This document shows, piece by piece, positions 9,659-42,164 of a DNA stretch of 44,471 nucleotides. Position 1 is the first letter of the stretch; the number at the start of each line of letters is the position of its first letter. The notes beneath the pieces were generated by a model. The model was not told the DNA's origin. It saw only the letters and a program-made list of their open reading frames with translations, and did no database searches. The stretch covers positions 1-44,471 of the forward strand of contig PWMT01000027.1 of NCBI GenBank assembly GCA_003558085.1, in the 5' to 3' direction. Source of the DNA: Methanobacteriaceae archaeon. Its GTDB lineage: Archaea > Methanobacteriota > Methanobacteria > Methanobacteriales > Methanobacteriaceae. The position numbers and the translations under genes are program-made.

Positions 9659-10600
9659 CTAAATTAAAACCACCCTTAAAAATACGAATAACCACCATAA
9701 CAACATAAGTATGGTACTTTTTAAATGGGGCAACGATTTTTTAAAACCATCTTTTAAATCAGAATTCAGACTCCAGTGAATAATAATTATTAAAAGCAGT
9801 AAAAGAGTTGCAATACCTCCTAAAATATTTAATGGATTATTTAAATAACTAAATATCCAAAAAAAAGTAGTAATAAGAATTCCAAGCCACATTACCGGAT
9901 TTAAACTTTCAAATACTTTAATAGCAAGTTTCAAGTTTTCTTCAAATTTACGGGCCTTTAAGAGTAGACCATAGATAGCTAGATACACTCCCAGGGCTAG
10001 AATAATACCTACAAACTGGGGAAAGACTTCTACTACAGGCACCTGGAAGAAGCCAGCTTTCAGTATAGGTAACAATATCAAGGCATTTAATGCTTCATCC
10101 AAGGGAAAGGTTTCTATATCTCCCACTGCCAGTGAATAAAAACCCTGATTTTCATTATTGAATACCCGAATATAATAGGTACCTGGCTCTACAGTCTGAT
10201 TATATTCAGGGCCTTGCAAGTAATTATCTCCTCCAAAAGGTTCAAAAAATGGTTTCCAATCATAATTTATCCCATCCAAGAGGACTATGACATTTAAATT
10301 TTCATCTAATATCTCAGCCGATACCAGTTTCTCTCCTGATCCGGGAGTATCGGGCACCAGTAAATTCACATATAATCGAAATTCTTCATTACTAGTTATT
10401 TTATAATAAGCCGGGCTTCCCTTAAGTTCACCATAAAAAGCCTGGGAAATTTCAGGATTATCCACTAGTATGGGATTTTCCAGGGAACTGTCCTCACGGG
10501 CTAAACGAGGCTGATGGGCATTACTCCAGGATAGAGATATTAAAAGAATTAATAAAATAATTACTAAACTTGTCCGTTGATAGAAAGTTCCGGCTTTCAT
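9659..10600 (-). CDS. Hypothetical membrane protein with N-terminal extracellular beta domain
   Basis: Signal peptide, soluble domain (FFEPFGGDNY, PGTYYIRVF) and about 4-5 C-terminal TM helices. Confidence 0.75.
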   Translation of the reverse strand: MKAGTFYQRTSLVIILLILLISLSWSNAHQPRLAREDSSLENPILVDNPEISQAFYGELKGSPAYYKITSNEEFRLYVNLLVPDTPGSGEKLVSAEILDENLNVIVLLDGINYDWKPFFEPFGGDNYLQGPEYNQTVEPGTYYIRVFNNENQGFYSLAVGDIETFPLDEALNALILLPILKAGFFQVPVVEVFPQFVGIILALGVYLAIYGLLLKARKFEENLKLAIKVFESLNPVMWLGILITTFFWIFSYLNNPLNILGGIATLLLLLIIIIHWSLNSDLKDGFKKSLPHLKSTILMLLWWLFVFLRVVLI

Positions 10601-11567: not shown

Positions 11568-11803
11568 TATTTTACCCCAAATATCAATTTTGATTATTAA
11601 TATCTGTTTATCTTAATATAAATCTCTATTATAGAAAAAATAATCAATTCTTCACCATTAAAACTTTTTTTTTATAGTTTTATAAGGCTAATCTTTAATT
11701 AAAAACATCATATATTTTTTATTTAATAAACTAAATTCCATAAGGCCTTTATTATTTTGGCAAATTTTATATTATTGTAAAAGAGAAATAAATGGTTATG
11801 GTC

Positions 11804-13057
11804 ATGCAGATTTCTACCGATGTTAGCGGAAGAAGTGGTATAGATTGTGGGGGTTTTTGCAAGTTCTGTTTTTATAAAAATGTTGATTTTAATAATTTAA
11901 AACCCATAGGTTGTGTAAATTGCCCTCCCCATACAAAAGGATGCTCTTATTGTCAAAGTATTATGGATAGAGTATCCAGTGATTATAAACCTCTTTATAA
12001 CGTTTTAGAAGACCTGGTGCAAAAATTTTCAAAAATTAATTGGAGTACCTTAAATCCTAAAGATCTTCAGATACTGGTAATCGGGGGAGCGGATATATTT
12101 AACTATCCCGAGCTCTACAAGCTTGTTTCTAAATTAAAAGAACTTCCATTTTCATTACATTTGGGATATACTAGTGGAAAACCTATAAAAAATCATAAAA
12201 TGCCTGAAAAATTGATTTCATTAGGGGTGGATGAGGTGAGTTTTTCAATTTTTTCCACAAATCCAGAAATGAGAAGAAAATGGATGAGGGATACCAGTCC
12301 TGATCAATCCATTAAAGGTTTTAAAATCTTCTCTGAAAACATTGATCTCAATGCATCTGCTGTAATTATTCCCGGAGTAAATGATGGAGAGCAACTAATT
12401 GAAACCTGCGTAAATCTAGAAGATTGGGGTATAAAATCATTTGCCTTAAGAAGATTTGCTAATTTCAACTATCAAGGACTTATATTGAATAAAAAACCAA
12501 TATTGGATGGAATAACCCCTCAAACTTATGAAGAATTCCAATCATTAGTCTACAAGGTTTCTGAAGAATTTTCTTTCAAAGTAATTGGTTTTCCCTTATA
12601 TTACTCTAAAAAAGATTTACCCTTCGCCATATTGAAAAAAAATAACCAAAGCATGCTTAGAGAATTACCTAAAATCAAAACAAAAGCTTCAGTTTTAACT
12701 GGCAAATTAGCTTCACCTTTTTTGAAAAAATTTTTTGAATTAGTTGATGATTTGAATCTGGTGAATGTTATTACTCTGGGAAAAGAAATCGCTGATTTAA
12801 TTACCCAAGAAGATTTGGAGTTAATGGACCTTGCTGAAGTTAAATCTAATGTGATTATTCCCAGAGGGGCTTTGGTTCATGATAAAGAAGTTAAGAAAAT
12901 TTTAAATAGTGACGGTAAGTTTAGAAAAATGGTTAGGGGTTCTTTGGATTTAACCTATCCTTATAATGAAAATGTAGATGATTCCCAAGAAGATTTCAAA
13001 AAATTTGAACTAAAATGTTTTAAAGATTTGATTGATACCATAAATTCTTTTAAATAA
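11804..13057 (+). CDS. Mmp10-like cobalamin-dependent radical SAM protein (methanogenesis marker 10 homologue, divergent)
   Basis: N-terminal DCGGFCKFC (CxxxCxxC), a second CxxC-x6-CxxC loop, HLGYTSGK, IIPGVNDG, RFAN...GLIL and IADLIT..DL, matching the Mmp10 family layout. ATG at 11792 is an alternative start. Confidence 0.8.
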   Translation: MQISTDVSGRSGIDCGGFCKFCFYKNVDFNNLKPIGCVNCPPHTKGCSYCQSIMDRVSSDYKPLYNVLEDLVQKFSKINWSTLNPKDLQILVIGGADIFNYPELYKLVSKLKELPFSLHLGYTSGKPIKNHKMPEKLISLGVDEVSFSIFSTNPEMRRKWMRDTSPDQSIKGFKIFSENIDLNASAVIIPGVNDGEQLIETCVNLEDWGIKSFALRRFANFNYQGLILNKKPILDGITPQTYEEFQSLVYKVSEEFSFKVIGFPLYYSKKDLPFAILKKNNQSMLRELPKIKTKASVLTGKLASPFLKKFFELVDDLNLVNVITLGKEIADLITQEDLELMDLAEVKSNVIIPRGALVHDKEVKKILNSDGKFRKMVRGSLDLTYPYNENVDDSQEDFKKFELKCFKDLIDTINSFK

Positions 13058-13212: not shown

Positions 13213-13764
13213 ATGTCAATTAAAAGGATTATATTAATAATAATCACCTTTTCTATATTGTCTGTTTTATTTTTAACATTGATTTTTGAAACTCAATTTC
13301 TAAGTTGGATTGAACTTAACTGGTTTTCTCTGCTGCTAATAATTCTAATAGTTGCAATTTTTATAGCATTTATATTAGGATTTTCAATAGATTATTTATA
13401 TCCGAAGATTTCCAAGAAGTCAAGATTTTCACAAACCACCCAACTTAAAAAACCCCGCAAAAAATTAGCAAAACTAATTTTACCCAGAGATAATCAATTA
13501 ATTATAGATTATTACGAAAGAGTTTATGGTAGAGCAGATTTTATAGGATTATTGGTAATAGATAAACTAAATTTCATAGGAAGAGAGCATTTCAAAATTA
13601 CTAAATTGGATGATGGAATTTATATTGAAGATCTTGATACCAAAAACGGAACAAAGGTTAATGGGGAAGAAATAAAAGGCTTAGATAAAGTTAAACTGAA
13701 AAATAATGATTCAATACTGGTTGCCAAGGTATTAGAACTAAAATTCGTGACAGAATCTGAATAA
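13213..13764 (+). CDS. Membrane-anchored FHA-domain protein
   Basis: Two N-terminal TM helices; C-terminal FHA motifs YGR, REHF and IEDLDTKNGTKVNG. Confidence 0.88.
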   Translation: MSIKRIILIIITFSILSVLFLTLIFETQFLSWIELNWFSLLLIILIVAIFIAFILGFSIDYLYPKISKKSRFSQTTQLKKPRKKLAKLILPRDNQLIIDYYERVYGRADFIGLLVIDKLNFIGREHFKITKLDDGIYIEDLDTKNGTKVNGEEIKGLDKVKLKNNDSILVAKVLELKFVTESE

Positions 13765-13806: not shown

Positions 13807-14892
13807 ATGCAATGTGAATATAGGGGATGTGAGGAAGAGGTTTTTAATGAAAATGATTTATGTATTCTCCATATCAATTTACCCCTTGATGAAAACAGTG
13901 AAGAATTCAAAATAATCAACCAATTAAAAGAAGATAAAATAGAGGAGAGGAAAAAAAACCATAATCTAAATTTTAAAGGAGTTAATCTTTTAAATGCGAA
14001 CTTCCAGGAATTTGAAACGGAAAAGGACATAATATTAACTGATTCTTTCATAAAAAATAACCTATTATTTGAAAATGCCTGGATTGGTGGAGATGTATGG
14101 GCCGATAAAATCAAGATAGAAGGAAGCCTTTTTTTTGAAATGGCCCAGTTTGAGGGCAGTGTTTCTTTTTTCAATGCTGAAATAAATGGAAATATTTTCT
14201 TCGATCATTGTCAAATTGGATATTATATGTGGTTTCAGAATGCCATTATAGGTGGAGATTTATCCTTTAATCATATTAAAACAGGAGGAAGTATTTCTTT
14301 TAAAAATGCCCAATTAAATCACAATGTTTCCTTCAATGCTGCACAAATAGGGGGTAATGCCTGGTTTGATAAAGCTTATATTAAAGGAAACACTTATTTC
14401 GATCTTTTAAATGTAGTTGGGACTTTAAATTTTTTTAATACAAAATTTGAAAATTCTAAAGGACAGGAAAGAGCCTATAGGTCTGCAAAAATAATTTGGG
14501 AGAGATATGGTGATAGGGAAAGAGCAGATTACAACTTTTATCATGAAATGGAGGCCAAAAGAAAACAGAAACATTTTTATTTACGCTATCCAGAATTAAT
14601 TGTGCAATATATTTTTGGCTATGGGGTATATCCCCTACGAGTTTTATTTGCATATATAGGTCTATTTTTCTTATTTGCATTTATTTACTGGTATTTGGAT
14701 GGGTTTGGCTCATATGATTCCCTAATTAATAAATTAAAATTCAGTTTTATCACTCTTATTATCCCAGCTTATGGGGTGGTAATAGATCCTAGAACGGGAT
14801 TTTATGGCTTTTTAACCATTATACAGGCAGGTATCGGCGCTTTCACCTGGCCCCTTTTTGTGGTGATCTTTGCCCGAAAATTCATGCGGTAA
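13807..14892 (+). CDS. Pentapeptide-repeat protein with C-terminal 2TM channel-like domain
   Basis: N-terminal C-x4-C...C-x2-H motif, repeated (F)xNAxIxGxxxF units, GYGVYPLRV followed by two TM helices flanking a pore-like segment. Confidence 0.8.
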   Translation: MQCEYRGCEEEVFNENDLCILHINLPLDENSEEFKIINQLKEDKIEERKKNHNLNFKGVNLLNANFQEFETEKDIILTDSFIKNNLLFENAWIGGDVWADKIKIEGSLFFEMAQFEGSVSFFNAEINGNIFFDHCQIGYYMWFQNAIIGGDLSFNHIKTGGSISFKNAQLNHNVSFNAAQIGGNAWFDKAYIKGNTYFDLLNVVGTLNFFNTKFENSKGQERAYRSAKIIWERYGDRERADYNFYHEMEAKRKQKHFYLRYPELIVQYIFGYGVYPLRVLFAYIGLFFLFAFIYWYLDGFGSYDSLINKLKFSFITLIIPAYGVVIDPRTGFYGFLTIIQAGIGAFTWPLFVVIFARKFMR

Positions 14893-14988
14893 AAATTAAA
14901 TTCATGTTAAAGCATTTTTCTTACTTTTTTTCTTATAACCATTCGAAAATCCTTTATTATAATCCTGCAGGAAATAATCATAATAAAT

Positions 14989-16455
14989 TTAATCAACTTT
15001 TTGCGTATCAATGCCCATCACAGCATACATCACATTCCCGGGGTCACTGATGGAGGTTATGCTGATCCCTGATTTTTTTCCAATAGATGATCGACTATTA
15101 GGATTGGTTTTATCATTAAATATACGATTTTCAGTTTCTCCAGGAAAAACATCACCATGATCTCCTTGAACTTCTAAAAATTTTTTTAACTCATCCTCTG
15201 TTGGTCTGAATTTATTAGAATCCTTTACCATAAATATGCGTTTTTCTAATTCATTTTTACCATCTGCTTGGTTTAAGCGTATAAAAAGCGATTTAGGGTC
15301 TAAATTGGGAAACTTTATATCTTTATAATTTTCTTCATTAACATGCCAGATTAAAAGACCCTCACCAGGTATATGTTCATCAAAGCCTTTTTTCGCACGA
15401 TTTTCAACTAAGAAATATTCTTTACCTTCTGAGGAGGGAATAACTAATTTATAAATTTTACTACCCTTATTAAAACCAGTGATTTCATATTTTTTAGGTC
15501 TCTTGTTGATGTTGATAGGTTCCTGCCATCCTAAATGCATTTTGCACCAGGCACTCAAATGTCCGGGGGTTTTCCCATCATCATTATAGTTTCCTCCGGC
15601 CATTAAACACCATTTTCCTACTATATTGGATGACCTGTCTGGTAGATACAGATCTGGAAGTCCTAAACTATGGCCCATCTCATGACAATATCCTCCCAGA
15701 TCAAAAGAAGGGATTTCATTGTTTATGATATAATTATCTACTATAAGACCATCTTCTAATTGTATAGGCTCTTTTAACTGATTTCTATGGGGAGATATAT
15801 CCTTATAATTCATGGTTCTATGAGATCCTTTACCGGCACACACCACTATGAGTAAATCTATACACCCATTTTTTTTATTATCAAACTTTGTAAAATCCAG
15901 GGTGCTGCTATTTTGAGCCTCTAAAACTATTTCTTTAACTAAATCGGTTGCTTTTGGCATTCGCCATCCTAAAGTATCCTGATTCATATTTTCTGAATCC
16001 ACATAGCTCGAATAATTATTATTGGCTTCGAACCAACCTAAAACTTCTCCATCAATTTCCAGCTTGCCTCCGGAATTTTCTATAAAATAATTTTTCATAC
16101 TCTTTTTTTTATCATCAAATAAAAGTTCTCTAAATTCTTCCTTTTTAGTGTTATTTGTTTTATCTTTAAAATTTACCAGCAATACCAGAGCATTTTTTTT
16201 ACCTATAACTGGATCTTTTTTACGATAATCAATAGCTGAATCCGCCTTAAATTGATCCAACATTAGATAATTGCGGATCCAATTTTGTTTACATTGTTCA
16301 TAGGTTCTTGTAGTTACACCAGTCTTTTTTTCAATTTCATCTTCATCTAAGTCCTTCTTCAACAAGTTGACGAATTGCAACATCCTTTTAAATACTTCGG
16401 GATGAGATCTTCTCAGATGCACTCCTGTAACGATTTCTTCTAGATTTTTATTCAT
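14989..16455 (-). CDS. M6 family (immune inhibitor A-like) zinc metalloprotease
   Basis: LVLLVNFKD, SMKNYFIENSGG, HEMGHSLGLPDLY, WCLMAGG Met-turn, HLSAWCK, EYFLVENR and GLLIWHV. No signal peptide. SD GGGGGT. Confidence 0.9.
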   Translation of the reverse strand: MNKNLEEIVTGVHLRRSHPEVFKRMLQFVNLLKKDLDEDEIEKKTGVTTRTYEQCKQNWIRNYLMLDQFKADSAIDYRKKDPVIGKKNALVLLVNFKDKTNNTKKEEFRELLFDDKKKSMKNYFIENSGGKLEIDGEVLGWFEANNNYSSYVDSENMNQDTLGWRMPKATDLVKEIVLEAQNSSTLDFTKFDNKKNGCIDLLIVVCAGKGSHRTMNYKDISPHRNQLKEPIQLEDGLIVDNYIINNEIPSFDLGGYCHEMGHSLGLPDLYLPDRSSNIVGKWCLMAGGNYNDDGKTPGHLSAWCKMHLGWQEPININKRPKKYEITGFNKGSKIYKLVIPSSEGKEYFLVENRAKKGFDEHIPGEGLLIWHVNEENYKDIKFPNLDPKSLFIRLNQADGKNELEKRIFMVKDSNKFRPTEDELKKFLEVQGDHGDVFPGETENRIFNDKTNPNSRSSIGKKSGISITSISDPGNVMYAVMGIDTQKVD

Positions 16456-16602
16456 TAAATAACCCCCAAAGTATTATATAATATAAAGTATAAAAATGTC
16501 TTTTTTAAATAATTATGGATATATAAGTAATACTTTGATTAACTATAAATCATATAAATTATAATATAATATAAAGATTTTTTTGGCGGGGGGGGTTAGA
16601 TT

Positions 16603-16773
16603 TTGAGTCGAGAAGAAGAAATAAAAAATTTAGAAGATTTCAAAGATGGCTATAAAAAAGGTTTTGCTGATGGATATATGGAGGCTATGAAAGAAGTCTT
16701 TAAAATGCAGGAAAAAATGGATAAAGAAAGTATGACCACACCGGGTGTTCAACCAAGATCAATTTGGTGGTAA
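16603..16773 (+). CDS. Small 56-aa protein MSREEEIKNLEDFKDGYKKGFADGYMEAMKEVFKMQEKMDKESMTTPGVQPRSIWW (absent from the ORF track)
   Basis: Hand translation: TTG at 16603 after a G8 SD-like run (16588-16595), purine-rich coding-like composition, TAA at 16771-16773, then a T-tract. Confidence 0.8.
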   Translation: MSREEEIKNLEDFKDGYKKGFADGYMEAMKEVFKMQEKMDKESMTTPGVQPRSIWW

Positions 16774-16952: not shown

Positions 16953-19181
16953 TTGATTATGGTGTTAGTTTTCTTTTTAATCTTATCTCCAATACATGCT
17001 AGTAATGAAAAACCCTCGGTTGTATTTGATGAGACTGGCCCTTATTATAATTTTTTTACTATATTCAATTTAGGTGGGACCGGTTCTTCTATTTTTGCTA
17101 ATCTACTAGAATCAAATGGGTTTTCAGTTTCGCGATTGACAGGGTCTCCTATAACTGACCAGAATCTTCAAGAACATGATGTTTTAATTGTAATGGCCCC
17201 TGCACGTAATTACACAGATGATGAAATTCAATCCATAAAAAAATTTGTTAATGATGGTGGGGGATTGTTTTTATTAGGTGATAATTGGGGGGTGGAGGAT
17301 GGTAATGAAAATTATGCCTATAATCTACTTGCCCAAAGTTTTGGATTAAGTTTTTCTTATAATGAAGCTTTAGTAGACTCTGAAAATTATATAGGATTGC
17401 ACGACTTTGTTATAATTTCTGATATTCAATCTAGCTCGCTAACAACTAATCTAGACAAATTAAATTACATGCAAGGATCTTATATTAAAGATCCAGGTTC
17501 TTCAGAAATTCAGGCCTTATCTAGTTCTAATTCATGGGGAGATCAATTAACACTAACAGATAGCGGATTTTCCGAACCGGATTTTAATAAAGATCCAAAT
17601 GAAGTTTCAGGTCCTCTACCTGTGCTTACTACTTTAGATTATGGCCAGGGAAGAGTAGTATTTTTTGGTTCGGTAAGAAGCTTTAATAATGCTTGGATTT
17701 ATAGGAGCGATAACTGGAAACTGGGAATTAACAGTGTAAACTGGTTAGCAGGTAGACCAGCACCCAGCACTTATGAAGAAGCAGGCTTATTTTCACCTAC
17801 CCTAGCTGATTTACAAAATTATATTATGGGATTTTTTGGATACAGTTTACTACTTATAAGTGCTTTAGTTTTCAAAATAAACAAAGATAAGAAAGATAAA
17901 AAATCAAAACCATTTAAAATCATTAAAAACTGGAAATATAATGCTCTAATGGCTTTAAATGCAATATTTATAATTTTAGTAATTATTATCTTTATTAGCT
18001 CTAATATGATATTTTTTGATATAGCAAACCATCAGTTATTTGACGTTAACTTGGGGTATACTCTTTTAATTACGGGAATTCCATTAATTTTCTTCTCCAG
18101 TTTAATTCTCTATAACATATACGCCCGTTTAAGAATTAAGGTTAATTTTAACTATTTTAGCATTTTTATACTTATTTTATTTACAGGTTTAACCGCATTT
18201 CTGGGAAATTTATTCTCTTTTCCTATAATGGGTATTTTTACCGGTTTAAGTTTATTTTTAATTTTACCTTTTGCTGTTAATCTCTGGATTAACCATAAAT
18301 ATGGTTCGGAGATTATCATTGAAGGTAAAGAATTCAACCGTCTAGAAAAACTTTCTCTTAAATCATTACCCTACGAGCTTCAATCCATTTATCAAGAATC
18401 TTCCTTTATTGGTGAAGGTGGTTTTGGTCGTGTATTTAAGGCTCAAAGAAATGATGGTCAGGATGTTGCCATAAAGATACCAAAAAGCTTTGATAAAAGG
18501 TCGGAGAAGATTTTTGTTAGTGAAGTGGCCAACTGGGAGAATTTAATCCATCCCCACATAGTTAGGTTATATGACTACAAGATCTTGCCTATACCCTACC
18601 TTGAAATGGAGTACTGCGAATCTTCATTAAGTTATGGACCAAAAACCGTGGAAGAATCAGTTTCCGTCATCTATGAAGTGGCACAGGGATTAAAATATGC
18701 TCATGGTAAAAATATTATCCATGGAGATATAAAAAACACCAATATCATGAGCTGTAATGGAATTTATAAAATTTCCGATTGGGGACTGAGCAAATTACAT
18801 CTTGATGAATCAGTTACTGTTTCCGGGGTTACTCCCCATTATGCTGCACCAGAACAAATATCTCGTGAATTTGGAAAAGCAGATAGAAGAACCGATATTT
18901 ATCAGCTGGGAATTATATTCTATGAACAATTAACTGGAAATTTACCCTTTAAAGGAGAAATTTCAAAAGTTTATGACTCTATATTAAATACCCAGCCAGT
19001 TTTTCCTTCGGTAATAAACCCAGATGCAGCTTTAGCTGATAAAATAGTAATGAAATGTTTAAGCAAAAACAAAAAAGAAAGATACAACTCAATGGATGAA
19101 TTACTCCAAGATCTGGAACCATTCTATAAACCAAGATCAACAAGCGATAAAACGGTTTTTTTAGATAAAGAAGTAGATTAA
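16953..19181 (+). CDS. Receptor-like Hanks-type Ser/Thr protein kinase (extracellular GldG/GATase-like domain, about 5 TM, kinase)
   Basis: Signal peptide; VLIVMAP...FVNDGGGLFLLGD...GQGRVVFFG (GldG/GIFT-like); TM bundle; GEGGFGRV, VAIK, HGDIKNTN, DWGL, YAAPEQ and DIYQLG. The true start may be ATT at 16917. Confidence 0.92.
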   Translation: MIMVLVFFLILSPIHASNEKPSVVFDETGPYYNFFTIFNLGGTGSSIFANLLESNGFSVSRLTGSPITDQNLQEHDVLIVMAPARNYTDDEIQSIKKFVNDGGGLFLLGDNWGVEDGNENYAYNLLAQSFGLSFSYNEALVDSENYIGLHDFVIISDIQSSSLTTNLDKLNYMQGSYIKDPGSSEIQALSSSNSWGDQLTLTDSGFSEPDFNKDPNEVSGPLPVLTTLDYGQGRVVFFGSVRSFNNAWIYRSDNWKLGINSVNWLAGRPAPSTYEEAGLFSPTLADLQNYIMGFFGYSLLLISALVFKINKDKKDKKSKPFKIIKNWKYNALMALNAIFIILVIIIFISSNMIFFDIANHQLFDVNLGYTLLITGIPLIFFSSLILYNIYARLRIKVNFNYFSIFILILFTGLTAFLGNLFSFPIMGIFTGLSLFLILPFAVNLWINHKYGSEIIIEGKEFNRLEKLSLKSLPYELQSIYQESSFIGEGGFGRVFKAQRNDGQDVAIKIPKSFDKRSEKIFVSEVANWENLIHPHIVRLYDYKILPIPYLEMEYCESSLSYGPKTVEESVSVIYEVAQGLKYAHGKNIIHGDIKNTNIMSCNGIYKISDWGLSKLHLDESVTVSGVTPHYAAPEQISREFGKADRRTDIYQLGIIFYEQLTGNLPFKGEISKVYDSILNTQPVFPSVINPDAALADKIVMKCLSKNKKERYNSMDELLQDLEPFYKPRSTSDKTVFLDKEVD

Positions 19182-19195
19182 AAATTTATAGATTA

Positions 19196-19972
19196 TTAAT
19201 TTAAACATCTAACTGATTTCATTATTTCTTGGGCATTAGTTATTTTTTTTTCTAAATCAAGTATTATATAGGCTTTATTACCTCTGCTTAAGCTGGAAGA
19301 TAGAATTAACTGTTTTTCTCCGATTAATTTAGCTCCATCTACCGGGGTATGTCCCACTATCATGGCCTGGCATCCAACATTTTTTAAAAATGAATCGATG
19401 TCATTATTATCATAATCCCCATAACGGTTCCATAAAAGTCCTAGCAGTTTCTGGTTATTCAAATAACTTACATCTGTTATATGGATAACATCTTCAATAC
19501 TGTTAACTTCTTTTGCAGGTCCCGCATGGCTAATGAATACTTTATTCCCGGTTTTAACAGCTATGGGAAGTTTTCTAAAGAAATCCTGATATTCTTTTAA
19601 TTTATCTAGCCATTTATCCTGAAATTTCTCTTTTAATAAAATTTCAAAGGTAGAGTTTAAATCTTCCATGTTCTTATAAATGGCAACTGAAGTGATAACT
19701 GACCACTCATGGTTTCCTAATAGGACATGAAAGTTGGTATCTTTTTCAAAATTAGATTTAACAGTCTCTAATAATTCAATTGATTCATCTTTATCATGGT
19801 CTATAGCATGTATAAAATCACCAATTAATACCAGATGATTATCTTCTTTTTTAAAATCCTTCCAAATATCCATTAATTTATTAAAATCAGTTAAATTACC
19901 ATGAATATCTGCAATTATCAAGGCCTTACCTTTTTTGGGCAATTCAACCAGACTACCCCTATAATTATGCAT
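19196..19972 (-). CDS. PPP/calcineurin-like metallophosphoesterase (putative Ser/Thr phosphatase)
   Basis: ADIHGN, GDFIH, LGNHE, SHAG, LLWN and GHTP motifs. Confidence 0.85.
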   Translation of the reverse strand: MHNYRGSLVELPKKGKALIIADIHGNLTDFNKLMDIWKDFKKEDNHLVLIGDFIHAIDHDKDESIELLETVKSNFEKDTNFHVLLGNHEWSVITSVAIYKNMEDLNSTFEILLKEKFQDKWLDKLKEYQDFFRKLPIAVKTGNKVFISHAGPAKEVNSIEDVIHITDVSYLNNQKLLGLLWNRYGDYDNNDIDSFLKNVGCQAMIVGHTPVDGAKLIGEKQLILSSSLSRGNKAYIILDLEKKITNAQEIMKSVRCLN

Positions 19973-20104: not shown

Positions 20105-20518
20105 TTGCATAAGGGAAAATTGATGGGTATACTGGCCGGAATTACTTTTTTTATTATTATTTTAGCGTTGCTTAGTTATCTACAAACAGATTTTGACCAG
20201 AAGTTAATTATTGCGGTAAATAATGAAGAACCTACCTCAATTTTGATTACTCAAATTGAAGATGAAGCTGCAAGAGAGAGATCTAAAGCAAAAAATAACT
20301 TATTATCCAACATGTTGGATAGAAAATTTTGGTTTCAAATTGATAGTTTTAATGAATCTGATATTCAATTTTCTAAAGGAGTGTATATTAGACATATGAA
20401 ATTTATTAATGAGCAGGAGGAGTTAAGAAAAGATTTGGTAACTAAAAAAATTAATGTAGAAGAATTTACATTAGAAAGCAAAAGATTGGAAGAACTTTAC
20501 TACGCTAAGTTCTTTTGA
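20105..20518 (+). CDS. Hypothetical membrane-anchored helical protein
   Basis: SD GGGGAGG, N-terminal TM helix and a charged helical remainder. Confidence 0.7.
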   Translation: MHKGKLMGILAGITFFIIILALLSYLQTDFDQKLIIAVNNEEPTSILITQIEDEAARERSKAKNNLLSNMLDRKFWFQIDSFNESDIQFSKGVYIRHMKFINEQEELRKDLVTKKINVEEFTLESKRLEELYYAKFF

Positions 20519-21154: not shown

Positions 21155-21808
21155 TTATATTAACCCCATTATTAGATAGGCTCCCACCGCTCCAAAACAA
21201 GCAGTTAAATTATCTAATCCTCTAGGGGTGACTCCTTCCAGTATAGTGGCCACTAAAGAAATGATCACTATAGTAGTAAGATTTAGAGGATGATTATAGA
21301 ATAAGAAAACTATGATCAAAGAGAATATCAACACTAAAAACATGGAAATTGAACCTTCCAGACTTTTGGTATCTCCAAAGATATTATATTTATTTTTACC
21401 ATACCTTTCACCCATTAAGGAGGCTATTCCATCTCCATAGGACATGGCAGCAATTCCTACCGCTATAATCCAGGGCTGAGGAAAAAATAAAAAAGCCAGC
21501 ACCGTCCAGGAAATAGCATAATATACCAGTCCTAAACCATGTCCTGAAGTTGAAACTCGATGATTTAACTTTATAGGGGAATAAGGACTCATAATAAAAG
21601 TTAAAAATATAAATGGTGCTGCTGCAAGAAAGGTGATAGCCTCTCTGGTGGCAAATACTGGTAATATGAAGAGTATATTACCAACCATGATGTGTACAAA
21701 TTTTCGACTGAAACGAGGATAATTTTGGAGAACTTTAGCACTGATGATTAGTAACAGGGCTACATAACCATAAACAAATAATAGTCCTAGTAGGTCACTT
21801 GATTCCAT
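21155..21808 (-). CDS. SEC59/DGK1/VTE5-family polyprenol (dolichol/phytol) kinase
   Basis: SRKFVHI, GDGIASLMG, KSLEGS and GLDNL motifs; multiple TM helices. Confidence 0.88.
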   Translation of the reverse strand: MESSDLLGLLFVYGYVALLLIISAKVLQNYPRFSRKFVHIMVGNILFILPVFATREAITFLAAAPFIFLTFIMSPYSPIKLNHRVSTSGHGLGLVYYAISWTVLAFLFFPQPWIIAVGIAAMSYGDGIASLMGERYGKNKYNIFGDTKSLEGSISMFLVLIFSLIIVFLFYNHPLNLTTIVIISLVATILEGVTPRGLDNLTACFGAVGAYLIMGLI

Positions 21809-30514: not shown

Positions 30515-31459
30515 ATGGAATATATTATTGAAAGTTGGGATATTAGTAAAAAATTTGGTGATTTTACTGCAGTCAACTCAGTAAACCTCAAAGTACCCCG
30601 TAATAGTGTATATGGGGTGCTGGGACCTAATGGGGCTGGTAAAACCACTTTAATATCTATGTTATGTACAATACTCAAACCTACTTCTGGTAGAGCTGAA
30701 GTAAACGGCTATGATATTGTAAAAAATGCTAAAGAAGTTCGTGCTTCCATTGGAATTGTATTCCAATCTAGGGCTTTGGATGATATATTAACTGGAAGAG
30801 AGCATTTAGAGATGCATGCCGCCTTATACGGCGTTCCGATGGATTTACGCAATGAGAGAATTGAAGAGGTGCTTGATCTGATTGCTCTAGGGGATAAAGC
30901 AGATGAATTCATTAAAACTTACTCTGGTGGTATGAAAAGAAGATTAGAGATAGGAAGGGGTTTAATCCATCGCCCTAAAGTATTATTTTTAGATGAACCC
31001 ACACTGGGATTGGATCCTCAGACTAGGGAAAATATCTGGCAATATATACGTAAATTAAACCAGACAGAGGATATCACCGTACTTTTAACCACACATTATA
31101 TGGATGAAGCTGATAAATTATGTGATGAGGTAGCCATCATTAATCAAGGACAGATTATTCGGGCTGATTCTCCTCAAAATCTCAAAAGAGAACTTAAAGC
31201 AGATACTTTAACTCTTACCTTAGACGGTGGAGAAACTTTTGTGGAAGAGATTAAGAAAAAAGAATATGTTAAGGAAGCTTATAGTTTAGATGGTGAAATA
31301 AAACTTATGGTGGAGAGAGGTGAAAACCTGATACCTGATGTGGTGAACTTTGCCACATCCCAGGGATATGTGATTAACTCCATCGAATTGGAGCATCCTA
31401 ATTTAGAGGATGTATTTATTAAATATACAGGTTGTAAAATTAGTGAAGAAGGTAAATGA
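30515..31459 (+). CDS. ABC transporter ATP-binding protein (DrrA-like)
   Basis: GPNGAGKT, YSGGMKRR, LFLDEPT and TTHY motifs; C-terminal LEDVF. Confidence 0.95.
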   Translation: MEYIIESWDISKKFGDFTAVNSVNLKVPRNSVYGVLGPNGAGKTTLISMLCTILKPTSGRAEVNGYDIVKNAKEVRASIGIVFQSRALDDILTGREHLEMHAALYGVPMDLRNERIEEVLDLIALGDKADEFIKTYSGGMKRRLEIGRGLIHRPKVLFLDEPTLGLDPQTRENIWQYIRKLNQTEDITVLLTTHYMDEADKLCDEVAIINQGQIIRADSPQNLKRELKADTLTLTLDGGETFVEEIKKKEYVKEAYSLDGEIKLMVERGENLIPDVVNFATSQGYVINSIELEHPNLEDVFIKYTGCKISEEGK

Positions 31460-31506
31460 TAAAAATTTTTCATCTTTAATAAAATTAAGTTATTTGGAGC
31501 ATAATT

Positions 31507-32271
31507 ATGGCAGAATTAGAAGGAATCTACACTATTTGGCTGAGAGAAACTAAAAGATACATCCGTTACCGTTCAAGAATCATCACCTCAGTAGTATCCC
31601 CCATGTTATGGTTAATCATATTTGGAACTGGATTAGGGGCAGCTATTCGCTTTGGAGATATAGAAGGAGGATATCAGATATTTATTTATCCAGGTATTAT
31701 CGGACAAACCATACTCTTTACTTCTATTTTCTCAGGGGTTTCAGTGATTATTGATCGACAATACGGGTTTTTGAAGGAAATACTGGTCGCTCCATTATCC
31801 CGTCCTTCTATCGTACTAGGTAAGTCTCTGGGTATCAGTACCCATGCCCTCATCCAGGGTGTTATCTTACTAATACTTTCCTTTGTGGTGGGGGTTAGTA
31901 TGACTCCTATGATTTTCCTGGCCAGTGTATTTATCATAGTTCTCATTTCTTCTGGTCTGGCTGGTGTGGGACTTACTATTGCCTCTTTTACTGATAGTAT
32001 GGAAGGATTTAATCTGATCATGAGTTTTATAGTATTGCCCATGTTTTTACTAAGCGGGGCTTTGTTCCCAATTACCGGACTCCCCACCTGGCTGCAGGCA
32101 GCAGTTTATGTAAATCCACTGACTTATGGAGTGGATGCTTTAAGGTATATTATTTTAGGGGAAGCTGTACTTCCTTTAGGGATAAACATACTGGTATTAA
32201 TCATCTTCGCCATAATAACCATATCAGTTTCTGCTATACTCTTCAGTAAAAAGGAGCAGAGCTTAATGTAA
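31507..32271 (+). CDS. ABC-2 type permease (DrrB-like)
   Basis: Six TM helices, DRQYGFLKEILVAP and LSGALFP...NPLTYGVDALR motifs. Confidence 0.93.
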   Translation: MAELEGIYTIWLRETKRYIRYRSRIITSVVSPMLWLIIFGTGLGAAIRFGDIEGGYQIFIYPGIIGQTILFTSIFSGVSVIIDRQYGFLKEILVAPLSRPSIVLGKSLGISTHALIQGVILLILSFVVGVSMTPMIFLASVFIIVLISSGLAGVGLTIASFTDSMEGFNLIMSFIVLPMFLLSGALFPITGLPTWLQAAVYVNPLTYGVDALRYIILGEAVLPLGINILVLIIFAIITISVSAILFSKKEQSLM

Positions 32272-33321: not shown

Positions 33322-33792
33322 TTGACCTATATGCAGAAAAATAAGATTATTATCCTCACTCTACTTATTACTAGTCTATTAGTTATAGGATCGATCCATA
33401 CTTTCAGTTCTAATTATAGCCAGGGAGGGGAAAATAATTACATTCCTCCTGTAGAGGAGTATGTTATTTTATATTCAATTCATGAGGATTTTAGCGAAGA
33501 AAATGCTATAAACAGTATTAAACCTTGTGAAGATAGTGCTGATTTGGGTTTTAAGATTATAGATCAAGGCACTACAAGTATTGCTGGTGCCAAAGTATAT
33601 TATACCATATTTATTGATGAATATAATTCCAATACTTTTAATGGGGAATTATTTTATCAGAAAAATGATGATTGGTATTTTATTCAATGGAAAGATCAGC
33701 CAGGAAATCCCAATAAGGATGTTATTGACCAAGAAGTGGAAAATATTATTCGAAAAGATATAAACCTGGTGCATACTTGTTGTGGAAATTAA
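33322..33792 (+). CDS. Hypothetical exported protein
   Basis: N-terminal signal/TM segment and a small alpha/beta domain. ATG at 33331 is the likely start. Confidence 0.65.
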   Translation: MTYMQKNKIIILTLLITSLLVIGSIHTFSSNYSQGGENNYIPPVEEYVILYSIHEDFSEENAINSIKPCEDSADLGFKIIDQGTTSIAGAKVYYTIFIDEYNSNTFNGELFYQKNDDWYFIQWKDQPGNPNKDVIDQEVENIIRKDINLVHTCCGN

Positions 33793-41573: not shown

Positions 41574-42164
41574 ATGAAATCTTATATTATATTTTTATTT
41601 TTTATTAGCTTATTAATTCCACTAGTAGGTGTGGTTAGTGCAGAAGGGATAAACCTAGTTTATGATAATGGAGATATTGATATTAGAGATCCAAGACCAG
41701 TATATATCGTTTCAGATAATATTTATGGTGATGCCGTAGACATGAATCGCATGATTGCTATTCGAGATGGTTTGAGCCAAAAAGGAGTCCCAGCCACGGT
41801 CTATGCTGGACCATGTCCTAGTGCTCATAATGAAGTACTTTTAGATTCTAATGTTCCAGAAGATGCTGTTATTGCTGAGATAAGTTATATGTGCGCAGGA
41901 ACATTAAATAGTAAAGGAAATGAATGGTATCAAGATAAAAAAGGAAATAGGGACGTTGTTGTAATTAATTGGAGTTCAAATACAAAGTTGTCTGAAATAG
42001 ATTACTTGCCAAGAGCATGGGATGATAATTTTTCTCCTAGATACTTTAGAGGATTAAAAAATCCGTTAAACCATTTGAAAGAAAATGGTATACATTACGA
42101 TGAATCTAGAGATGTAGACCATGTTGTGGATAAATTATATAAAATATCTCTACAGAAGGGTTAA
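41574..42164 (+). CDS. Secreted hypothetical protein (Methanobacteriales cell-surface-associated domain)
   Basis: SD GGAGG, signal peptide ending VVSA, and motifs VYIVSDNI, CAGT and RAWDDNFSP. Confidence 0.75.
   Translation: MKSYIIFLFFISLLIPLVGVVSAEGINLVYDNGDIDIRDPRPVYIVSDNIYGDAVDMNRMIAIRDGLSQKGVPATVYAGPCPSAHNEVLLDSNVPEDAVIAEISYMCAGTLNSKGNEWYQDKKGNRDVVVINWSSNTKLSEIDYLPRAWDDNFSPRYFRGLKNPLNHLKENGIHYDESRDVDHVVDKLYKISLQKG

Follow-up and report, generated by a model that had tools for sequence, protein, structure and literature searches.

A conserved GX3-helix small protein encoded between an M6 protease and a receptor kinase in Methanobacteriaceae, a possible leader-plus-core peptide precursor

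A small gene divergent from an M6 protease

The window, by which we mean the whole stretch of 44,471 nucleotides analysed here, is contig C155 of a Methanobacteriaceae genome of 1.86 Mb. It carries a 56-aa ORF, whose product ends in TTPGVQPRSIWW, oriented divergently from the gene of an M6 (InhA-like) zinc metalloprotease and followed by that of a receptor Ser/Thr kinase (Table 1). The M6 start codon, at position 16455 of the minus strand, lies 147 bp from the ORF. An earlier note on this DNA had singled out a clean small ORF with a GX3 repeat and a 147-bp divergent gap, and its coordinates and features are as described there. Elsewhere in the window, four ORFs (9662-10600, 21158-21808, 33322-33792 and 41574-42164) gave no Pfam match at E 0.01.

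Table 1. Features of the peptide locus, in window coordinates.
Feature	Position	Strand	Remarks
Mmp10 paralogue, B12-type radical SAM	11792..13057	+	metal ligands kept; Arg-binding Glu motif and GGD lost
Membrane-anchored FHA protein	13213..13764	+	recurrent, 19/41 loci
Pentapeptide-repeat membrane protein	13807..14892	+	optional, 6/41 loci
In-frame relic of M6 GX3 tail	14902..14988	-	behind TAA at 14991-14989
M6 (InhA-like) zinc metalloprotease	14989..16455	-	488 aa, HExxHxxGxxD intact; ends before GX3 tail
Divergent intergenic region, M6/peptide	16456..16602		147 bp, AT-rich, 20% GC
G-rich ribosome-binding site	16585..16595	+	G-run 7 nt 5' of TTG
Small protein gene	16603..16773	+	56 aa, TTG start; GX3 leader helix and Trp/Pro tail
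GX3 helix core F13-M29	16639..16689	+	G16, G20, G24 conserved; homologous to M6 C-terminal tail
G[AVI]xP hinge and variable Trp/Pro tail G48-W56	16744..16770	+	likely active part
Receptor Ser/Thr kinase	16953..19181	+	signal peptide, GIFT/DUF4350 ectodomain, 5 predicted TM, Hanks kinase domain
Calcineurin-like metallophosphoesterase	19196..19972	-	in or beside cluster, 21/41 loci
137-aa single-TM helical protein, no known family	20105..20518	+	near-constant, 35/41 loci

The strong Shine-Dalgarno sequence reported upstream of the ORF corresponds to the G-run of Table 1. A comparable G-rich site precedes 35 of the 37 homologues, compared with a mean of 0.9 and a maximum of 4 for random upstream windows, an enrichment that is partly circular because the homologue starts were selected by their RBS score. 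The divergent region was scanned for promoters and terminators with bacterial models; signals did not exceed chance level and no promoter was located. T-rich runs were observed just 3' of the peptide stop in many loci, and these are possibly terminators that would delimit a separate short transcript. The single RNA run found was uninformative: its reads covered just part of the kinase gene and did not extend to the peptide gene.

The dN/dS of the peptide gene ranged from 0.04 to 0.72, that is below 1 in all 17 chosen homologue pairs (0.34 with the nearest relative, locus L129), and the homologues were syntenic across the genomes examined. At least two Trp residues within the last 10 positions were present in 31 of the 37 peptide homologues, compared with 9 of the 1442 long ORFs of the genome. 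Since the homologues are syntenic, dN/dS is below 1 and Trp-rich ends are rare among the ORFs of the genome, we conclude on sequence grounds that the ORF goes beyond chance and is a real conserved gene under selection. NCBI annotates its orthologues in Methanobacterium alkalithermotolerans and M. oryzae as hypothetical protein, and the named relatives of the window kinase and peptide are Methanobacterium species.

The peptide family and its gene cluster

The peptide set comprised 37 members, 40 loci having been fetched first and more added later. As the earlier note had proposed for the window ORF, the alignment shows a bipartite layout, with a conserved helical leader and a variable C-terminal core made of a Trp/Pro tail. 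The window repeat is G16-x3-G20-x3-G24, the family helix reads GYxxG[FY]xxGY, and the pattern G[YF]xxG[YF]xxG[YFA] was found in 36/37 peptides, each having 3-4 consecutive GX3 units plus an optional upstream one. A G[AVI]xP hinge precedes the tail in 26/37, and two homologues end in just ...RWP without the hinge. Trp and Pro both occur within the last 10 residues of all 37 peptides and Trp is among the last 3 residues of 36, the tail differing even between nearest relatives. The proposed cleavage after PR, which would release SIWW, has to be rejected because PR and PRxxWW are poorly conserved while the hinge is frequent: PR lies within the last 12 residues of 9/37 peptides, and a terminal PRxxWW is found in 1/37. 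The N-terminus of the peptides is charged and without a hydrophobic stretch, as judged on the alignment, whose inspection disclosed no Sec or double-glycine secretion leader.

How widely the family could be detected depended on the search. An initial word-indexed protein search gave one homologue, the window peptide as single query gave four syntenic homologues among 61 genomes, and with a profile 61 of 314 family genomes showed some match, many of these weak and helix-only. Many more proteins of 50-96 aa with the same build were found in a search of 1.84 billion representatives. Among the weak profile matches, five were inspected (G005, G073, G074, G089 and G114) and about ten others were left out; four of the five are ORFs that contain just the helix and lack a Trp tail, and the fifth resembles a relic of an M6 tail. 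There was no peptide match in 61 genomes sampled from another archaeal phylum, nor in 24 genomes outside the family. No Pfam family covers the peptide: the window peptide reached no better than E 0.024, with a FliH model, and Yae1_N (PF09811) weakly matches 14 of 50 family members, with a best E of 0.0014. GYxxG repeats are present in many unrelated proteins, and the helix alone is therefore not diagnostic. Another small GX3-helix ORF without a Trp tail was observed in three genomes of genus g13 (L103:7778-7984, L104:8071-8325, L105:8181-8381), adjoining a conserved 229-aa gene.

We looked at the neighbours of the gene in 41 loci picked via peptide or M6 matches. M6 was present in 40, in agreement with the linkage that the earlier note had wished to see checked in the family, the kinase in 39 and Mmp10-like enzymes in 22 (see Table 1 for the other genes). 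As these loci had been picked through the peptide or M6, a separate search was made with the kinase ectodomain as query. It matched 45 of the 314 family genomes, and 42 of the 45 have an intact peptide gene, 39 on the same contig and upstream of the kinase, and 3 split over contigs; this bears out the proposed kinase linkage. As for the remaining three genomes, two have a frameshifted peptide in broken loci, and one, whose kinase start is broken, has none. Among 43 metagenome loci, several of which are too short upstream to judge the presence of the peptide, L139 alone combines an apparently intact kinase and upstream DNA with the lack of a peptide, and its FHA gene is broken. By comparison, four of the 42 peptide genomes yielded no M6 (G003, G069, G082 and G091, the last 89% complete), and Mmp10 paralogues occur in 28 of the 42 peptide clusters and are missing from 14. 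Gene content thus marks the kinase as the one constant partner of the peptide, and M6 and Mmp10 as optional modifiers.

Several observations concern the cluster as a whole. It has decayed repeatedly (L074, L075, L076, L090, L126, L060, L071, L052), either by frameshifts or by deletions across the M6 start, the peptide and the kinase start; this points to an optional trait that is prone to loss. Genome G165 has two separate clusters (L047 and L048) whose tails differ, the second with frameshifted M6 and Mmp10 genes, and in G144 an open frame of more than 2000 codons, starting like an acetyl-CoA synthetase, follows M6 (L064:9847-16001). The terminal membrane part of the window pentapeptide-repeat protein is, by eye, what we take to be like a degenerate two-helix channel pore.

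In the kinase model, the GIFT/DUF4350 domain matches the N-terminal domain of IFT52, and the PknB-like domain has the invariant catalytic residues. The predicted order of signal helix, GIFT domain, five TM segments and kinase domain would place the sensor outside and the kinase inside. A kinase orthologue is on record for M. aggregans, and no relative of the ectodomain was found in the viral contigs searched. A specific co-evolution of the peptide tail with the ectodomain was considered, and the partial r of 0.48 obtained with one control fell to 0.12 (p 0.085) with all controls; it is therefore not used as support. Tail distance had its strongest partial link with the M6 prodomain (0.28, p 0.001), which is also the nearest DNA, followed the kinase TM region with a partial r of 0.18 (p 0.037), and the distance correlations did not single out the ectodomain as the partner of the tail.

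Since kinase, FHA protein and phosphatase adjoin the peptide gene and the window peptide has a TTP motif, the peptide could be a substrate of the kinase whose phosphorylated Thr is bound by the FHA protein, as the earlier note had also envisaged. The motif is however private to the window: TTP occurs in 1/37 peptides, any TP within the last 35 residues in 11/37 and any Thr in the last 20 residues in 20/37, and the FHA gene is in only 19/41 loci, which makes this role very improbable. Canonical FHA domains have S-x-x-H. At the same motif position the window FHA protein and its homologues in L041, L087 and L139 have G-[RK]-[EN]-H, and their phospho-Thr binding may therefore be atypical; some loci have two FHA genes.

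The earlier note had also remarked on the lack of a Sec signal and of an adjacent exporter, and both points held: besides the peptide alignment, no exporter family was found to recur among the annotated neighbours of the compared loci. An ABC-2 pair is encoded at 30515-32271, 14 kb off and outside the compared loci. The failure to find an exporter bears on the idea that the peptide is the precursor of a membrane-active antimicrobial (an archaeocin). The kinase would then regulate it or serve as self-sensor, and immunity would come from the 137-aa membrane protein, for which we found no usable Pfam or Atlas match. Short Trp/Pro-rich and sometimes Arg-rich tails do recall Trp-rich antimicrobial peptides, and besides a protease and tailoring enzymes the cluster has a small orphan membrane protein (35/41 loci). 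We nevertheless consider an archaeocin quite unlikely, as no exporter was found and many tails are without any basic residue. The available part of a 2026 survey of archaeal bacteriocins contains nothing alike (bioRxiv 10.64898/2026.07.27.741052).

The M6 tail and the Mmp10 paralogue

The window M6 has a prodomain-like N-terminal helical region, and no signal peptide was seen in it. The top fold match of the M6 model is the InhA2 zymogen (PDB 4YU6, E 7e-20); the model is confident in the core, and of low confidence in the tail, a helix joined by a loose linker. The profile of the peptide also matched the last 30-50 residues of M6 proteases, and an HHalign comparison of the peptide and M6 profiles aligned 52 columns at the M6 C-terminus with a probability of 97.9 and E 6e-13. 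The GX3 tail was found at 36 of 40 untruncated M6 ends (41 were examined, one being cut by a contig end), the four tail-less ends being those of the window, G138, G141 and G087. When M6 tails were compared with their cognate peptides, the extra upstream repeat was concordant in 28 of 33 pairs, and cognate similarity exceeded that of permuted pairs with p 1e-4, related genomes not being independent. Over 25 pairs, the charges of the peptide helix and the M6 tail complemented each other weakly and not consistently. Judged by these alignments, the M6 C-terminal tail is a homologue of the leader helix of the peptide and co-varies with its own peptide.

In the window, the tail persists as an in-frame relic behind the M6 stop codon. 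In the nearest relative, L129, gene order is the same and the GX3 tail is encoded inside M6. Between the window and L129, dN/dS is 0.9 over the 34 codons of the relic, 0.28 over the M6 body and 0.34 over the peptide, and the relic therefore looks like a lost, decaying module; docking by this tail would thus be weakened or absent in the window genome. The relic overlaps the very short gap to the convergent pentapeptide gene. The copy of the peptide helix at the M6 C-terminus, truncated here by a stop, had escaped the earlier note, as had the fact that the neighbouring radical SAM enzyme is a retooled Mmp10 paralogue.

Co-folding of the peptide with its partners had been suggested, and we ran the M6 pair of G332. 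The G332 peptide with the full M6 gave an ipSAE of 0.35 compared with 0.00 for the best of three controls, which is a weak pass: in the benchmark the mark was reached by 116/157 solved and 2/215 mismatched pairs, and scores at 0.60 or under contained only 18/157 solved pairs and both mismatches. The runs agreed in at least 64% of contacts with a partner pLDDT of at least 62, and gave no interface. Three of the M6-less genomes encode a changed helix, which in two of them is without its second and third Gly, and still have the WWP tail. The intact helix is kept by the M6-less G003 peptide and by the peptides beside tail-less proteases, and the peptide thus does not have to dock on M6; its helix may bind some other partner or pair with itself.

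These results bear on a further proposal, that the peptide is an inhibitor or antitoxin of a cytoplasmic M6, its helix docking and its Trp/Pro tail plugging the active site, so that kinase signalling would free the protease as a stress or defence switch. The two genes are head-to-head and have the helix in common, Pro-rich tails would presumably resist proteolysis, and several decayed loci have lost the M6 start, the peptide and the kinase start together. A role purely as M6 inhibitor, one of the earlier suggestions, is weakened because the peptide and its conserved Trp tail are kept in four genomes without M6, and the N-terminal region of M6 itself already resembles the InhA2 propeptide. On balance we find an inhibitor unlikely.

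We then considered the radical SAM enzyme. The window protein scores 440 bits with TIGR03278, whose family cut-off is 350, and the canonical mmp10 of the genome is elsewhere, beside the mcr genes on contig C110. Nearly all family genomes have one Mmp10 copy, and extra full-length copies are mostly in cluster-bearing genomes (the extra-copy genomes G102, G217 and G295 were left out of the cluster check). In a quick tree from which rows under 380 aa were excluded, 36 cluster Mmp10s formed one clade apart from 21 canonical ones, with a support of 100. CxxxCxxC and the Fe loop are kept in 36/36 cluster enzymes and Tyr115 in 34/36. In contrast, the DGE and GGD motifs, present in 21/21 canonical enzymes, occur in 0/36, and an aromatic [HNY]P[YF][YNFH] motif is found instead in 20/36. 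In Mmp10, Glu378 within the DGE motif binds the substrate arginine, according to the accessible part of PMC8828468 (PDB 7QBS). Some cluster enzymes have a Glu near the lost motif, so that a loss of Arg binding is only inferred. The cluster paralogue is likely to act on a different target, probably a hydrophobic one, and the accessible text of PMC5943407 makes no mention of such paralogues.

The peptide is the obvious candidate substrate. This is supported by the second precursor gene that G096 has between two paralogue copies (clusters have 1-3) and by the recruitment of a class I methyltransferase at several loci. Such a second precursor, on the opposite strand, was observed in L045 (4246-4473), L132, L133 and L143, with a damaged helix and a different tail; the class I SAM methyltransferase was seen inside the cluster or adjoining it in L069, L078, L087, L088, L089, L091 and L139, often as the gene that follows the Mmp10 paralogue. 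By eye, no tail residue tracked the presence of Mmp10.

The matching GX3 helices and the terminal Trp suggest yet another role, in which the peptide stays uncut in the cytoplasm as an adaptor or regulatory subunit: its helix would bind the M6 tail, nothing would be exported, and the C-terminal Trp would bind the membrane or cytoplasmic part of the kinase, or the Mmp10 paralogue, and couple protease activation to the kinase. This is the layout of Lto1, since, in the accessible part of PMC4523923, GX3 motifs mediate the Yae1-Lto1 heterodimer and the terminal Trp of Lto1 binds a third partner. The near-invariant terminal Trp (36/37), the failure to find an exporter or signal, the links of tail distance with the TM region and the M6 prodomain (partial r 0.18, p 0.037, and 0.28, p 0.001), and the resemblance of M6 to the InhA2 zymogen are all consistent with such an adaptor. 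However, a bridge to M6 would have no job in the four M6-less genomes, which yet keep the tail, and the adaptor leaves unexplained both the variation of the tail among nearest relatives and the repeated recruitment and duplication of methyltransferases. We give it a minor chance, though more than the other rivals.

Proposed function and comparison with known systems

The explanation that we favour, though we would put it at a little less than an even chance, is that of a leader-plus-core peptide which, after docking on M6 and cleavage, and sometimes after methylation, would act on the kinase. The GX3 helix of the peptide would dock on the matching helix at the end of M6, and this helix-helix pairing would hold the precursor while M6 cuts near the G[AVI]xP hinge, a cut that would mature or clear a core of 8-12 residues. 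Mmp10 paralogues, and in some loci the class I methyltransferase, would methylate the core and thereby tune the signal. The core would then reach the GIFT/5-TM sensor of the kinase and drive phosphorylation, with the FHA protein as its reader and the phosphatase to reverse it. Loss of either M6 or Mmp10 leaves the tail in place, and the kinase is constant; the tail therefore most likely acts on the kinase. An extended form, to which we give a minor chance, would be a cell-to-cell peptide circuit of Methanobacteriaceae in which M6 recognises the precursor through its copy of the leader, Mmp10-derived C-methylation yields strain-specific signals, and these are released and read out by the eukaryote-like GIFT receptor Ser/Thr kinase.

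If our reading is correct, the peptide would give both an archaeal receptor Ser/Thr kinase and a GIFT domain a candidate ligand. It would also be a candidate substrate of an Mmp10 paralogue, extending B12-radical-SAM sp3 methylation beyond MCR, and a case of substrate recognition by an enzyme that bears a copy of the leader of its substrate. The natural losses of M6, of the M6 tail and of Mmp10 are ready controls, and the orthologues in named species make the system testable. A literature search, made without supplements and mostly without subscription papers, found no description of the cluster; likewise, we found no peptide-signalling system of this kind described for these archaea.

Several known systems resemble parts of this one. 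The Yae1-Lto1 deca-GX3 adaptor and FliH share with it a GX3 helix on both partners and a functional C-terminal Trp on one of them, as far as the accessible part of PMC4523923 goes. Unlike Yae1 and Lto1, the peptide has its 3-4 consecutive GX3 units rather than ten over 40 residues, the partner helix is fused to a protease and the tail is a variable Trp/Pro stretch; and the cluster is linked to a kinase, neither to Fe-S delivery nor, as with FliH, to flagella. The cluster M6 resembles TIGR03296 and InhA2 in its intact catalytic motif and fold, and differs from them in that no signal peptide was seen and in its C-terminal GX3 helix homologous to the neighbouring peptide. With canonical Mmp10, the McrA-arginine C-methyltransferase, the paralogues share the radical SAM cysteines, the Fe loop and the Tyr115 motif, whereas they form a separate clade, are not beside mcr and have lost the Glu378 and GGD motifs in 36/36 cases.

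Further parallels are the Gram-positive Agr, ComC/ComS and SHP-Rgg systems with radical-SAM RiPPs, in which a small precursor combines a conserved leader with a variable core, and whose pheromone or RiPP clusters also contain a protease, tailoring enzymes and a membrane sensor beside it. Quorum sensing of the Agr/ComC type uses a histidine-kinase or RRNPP receptor and a Sec or double-glycine secretion leader. In contrast, the system described here is archaeal, its sensor is a GIFT/5-TM Hanks kinase instead of a His kinase or RRNPP protein, no exporter or secretion signal was found in the cluster, and the leader would be recognised by its own copy on the protease. As to RiPP precursor systems in general, the leader and variable core are matched, but a dedicated exporter was not found among the annotated recurrent neighbours. 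Altogether, this peptide system stands outside Yae1/Lto1, classical peptide quorum sensing and orthologous Mmp10, and yet would work like parts of each.
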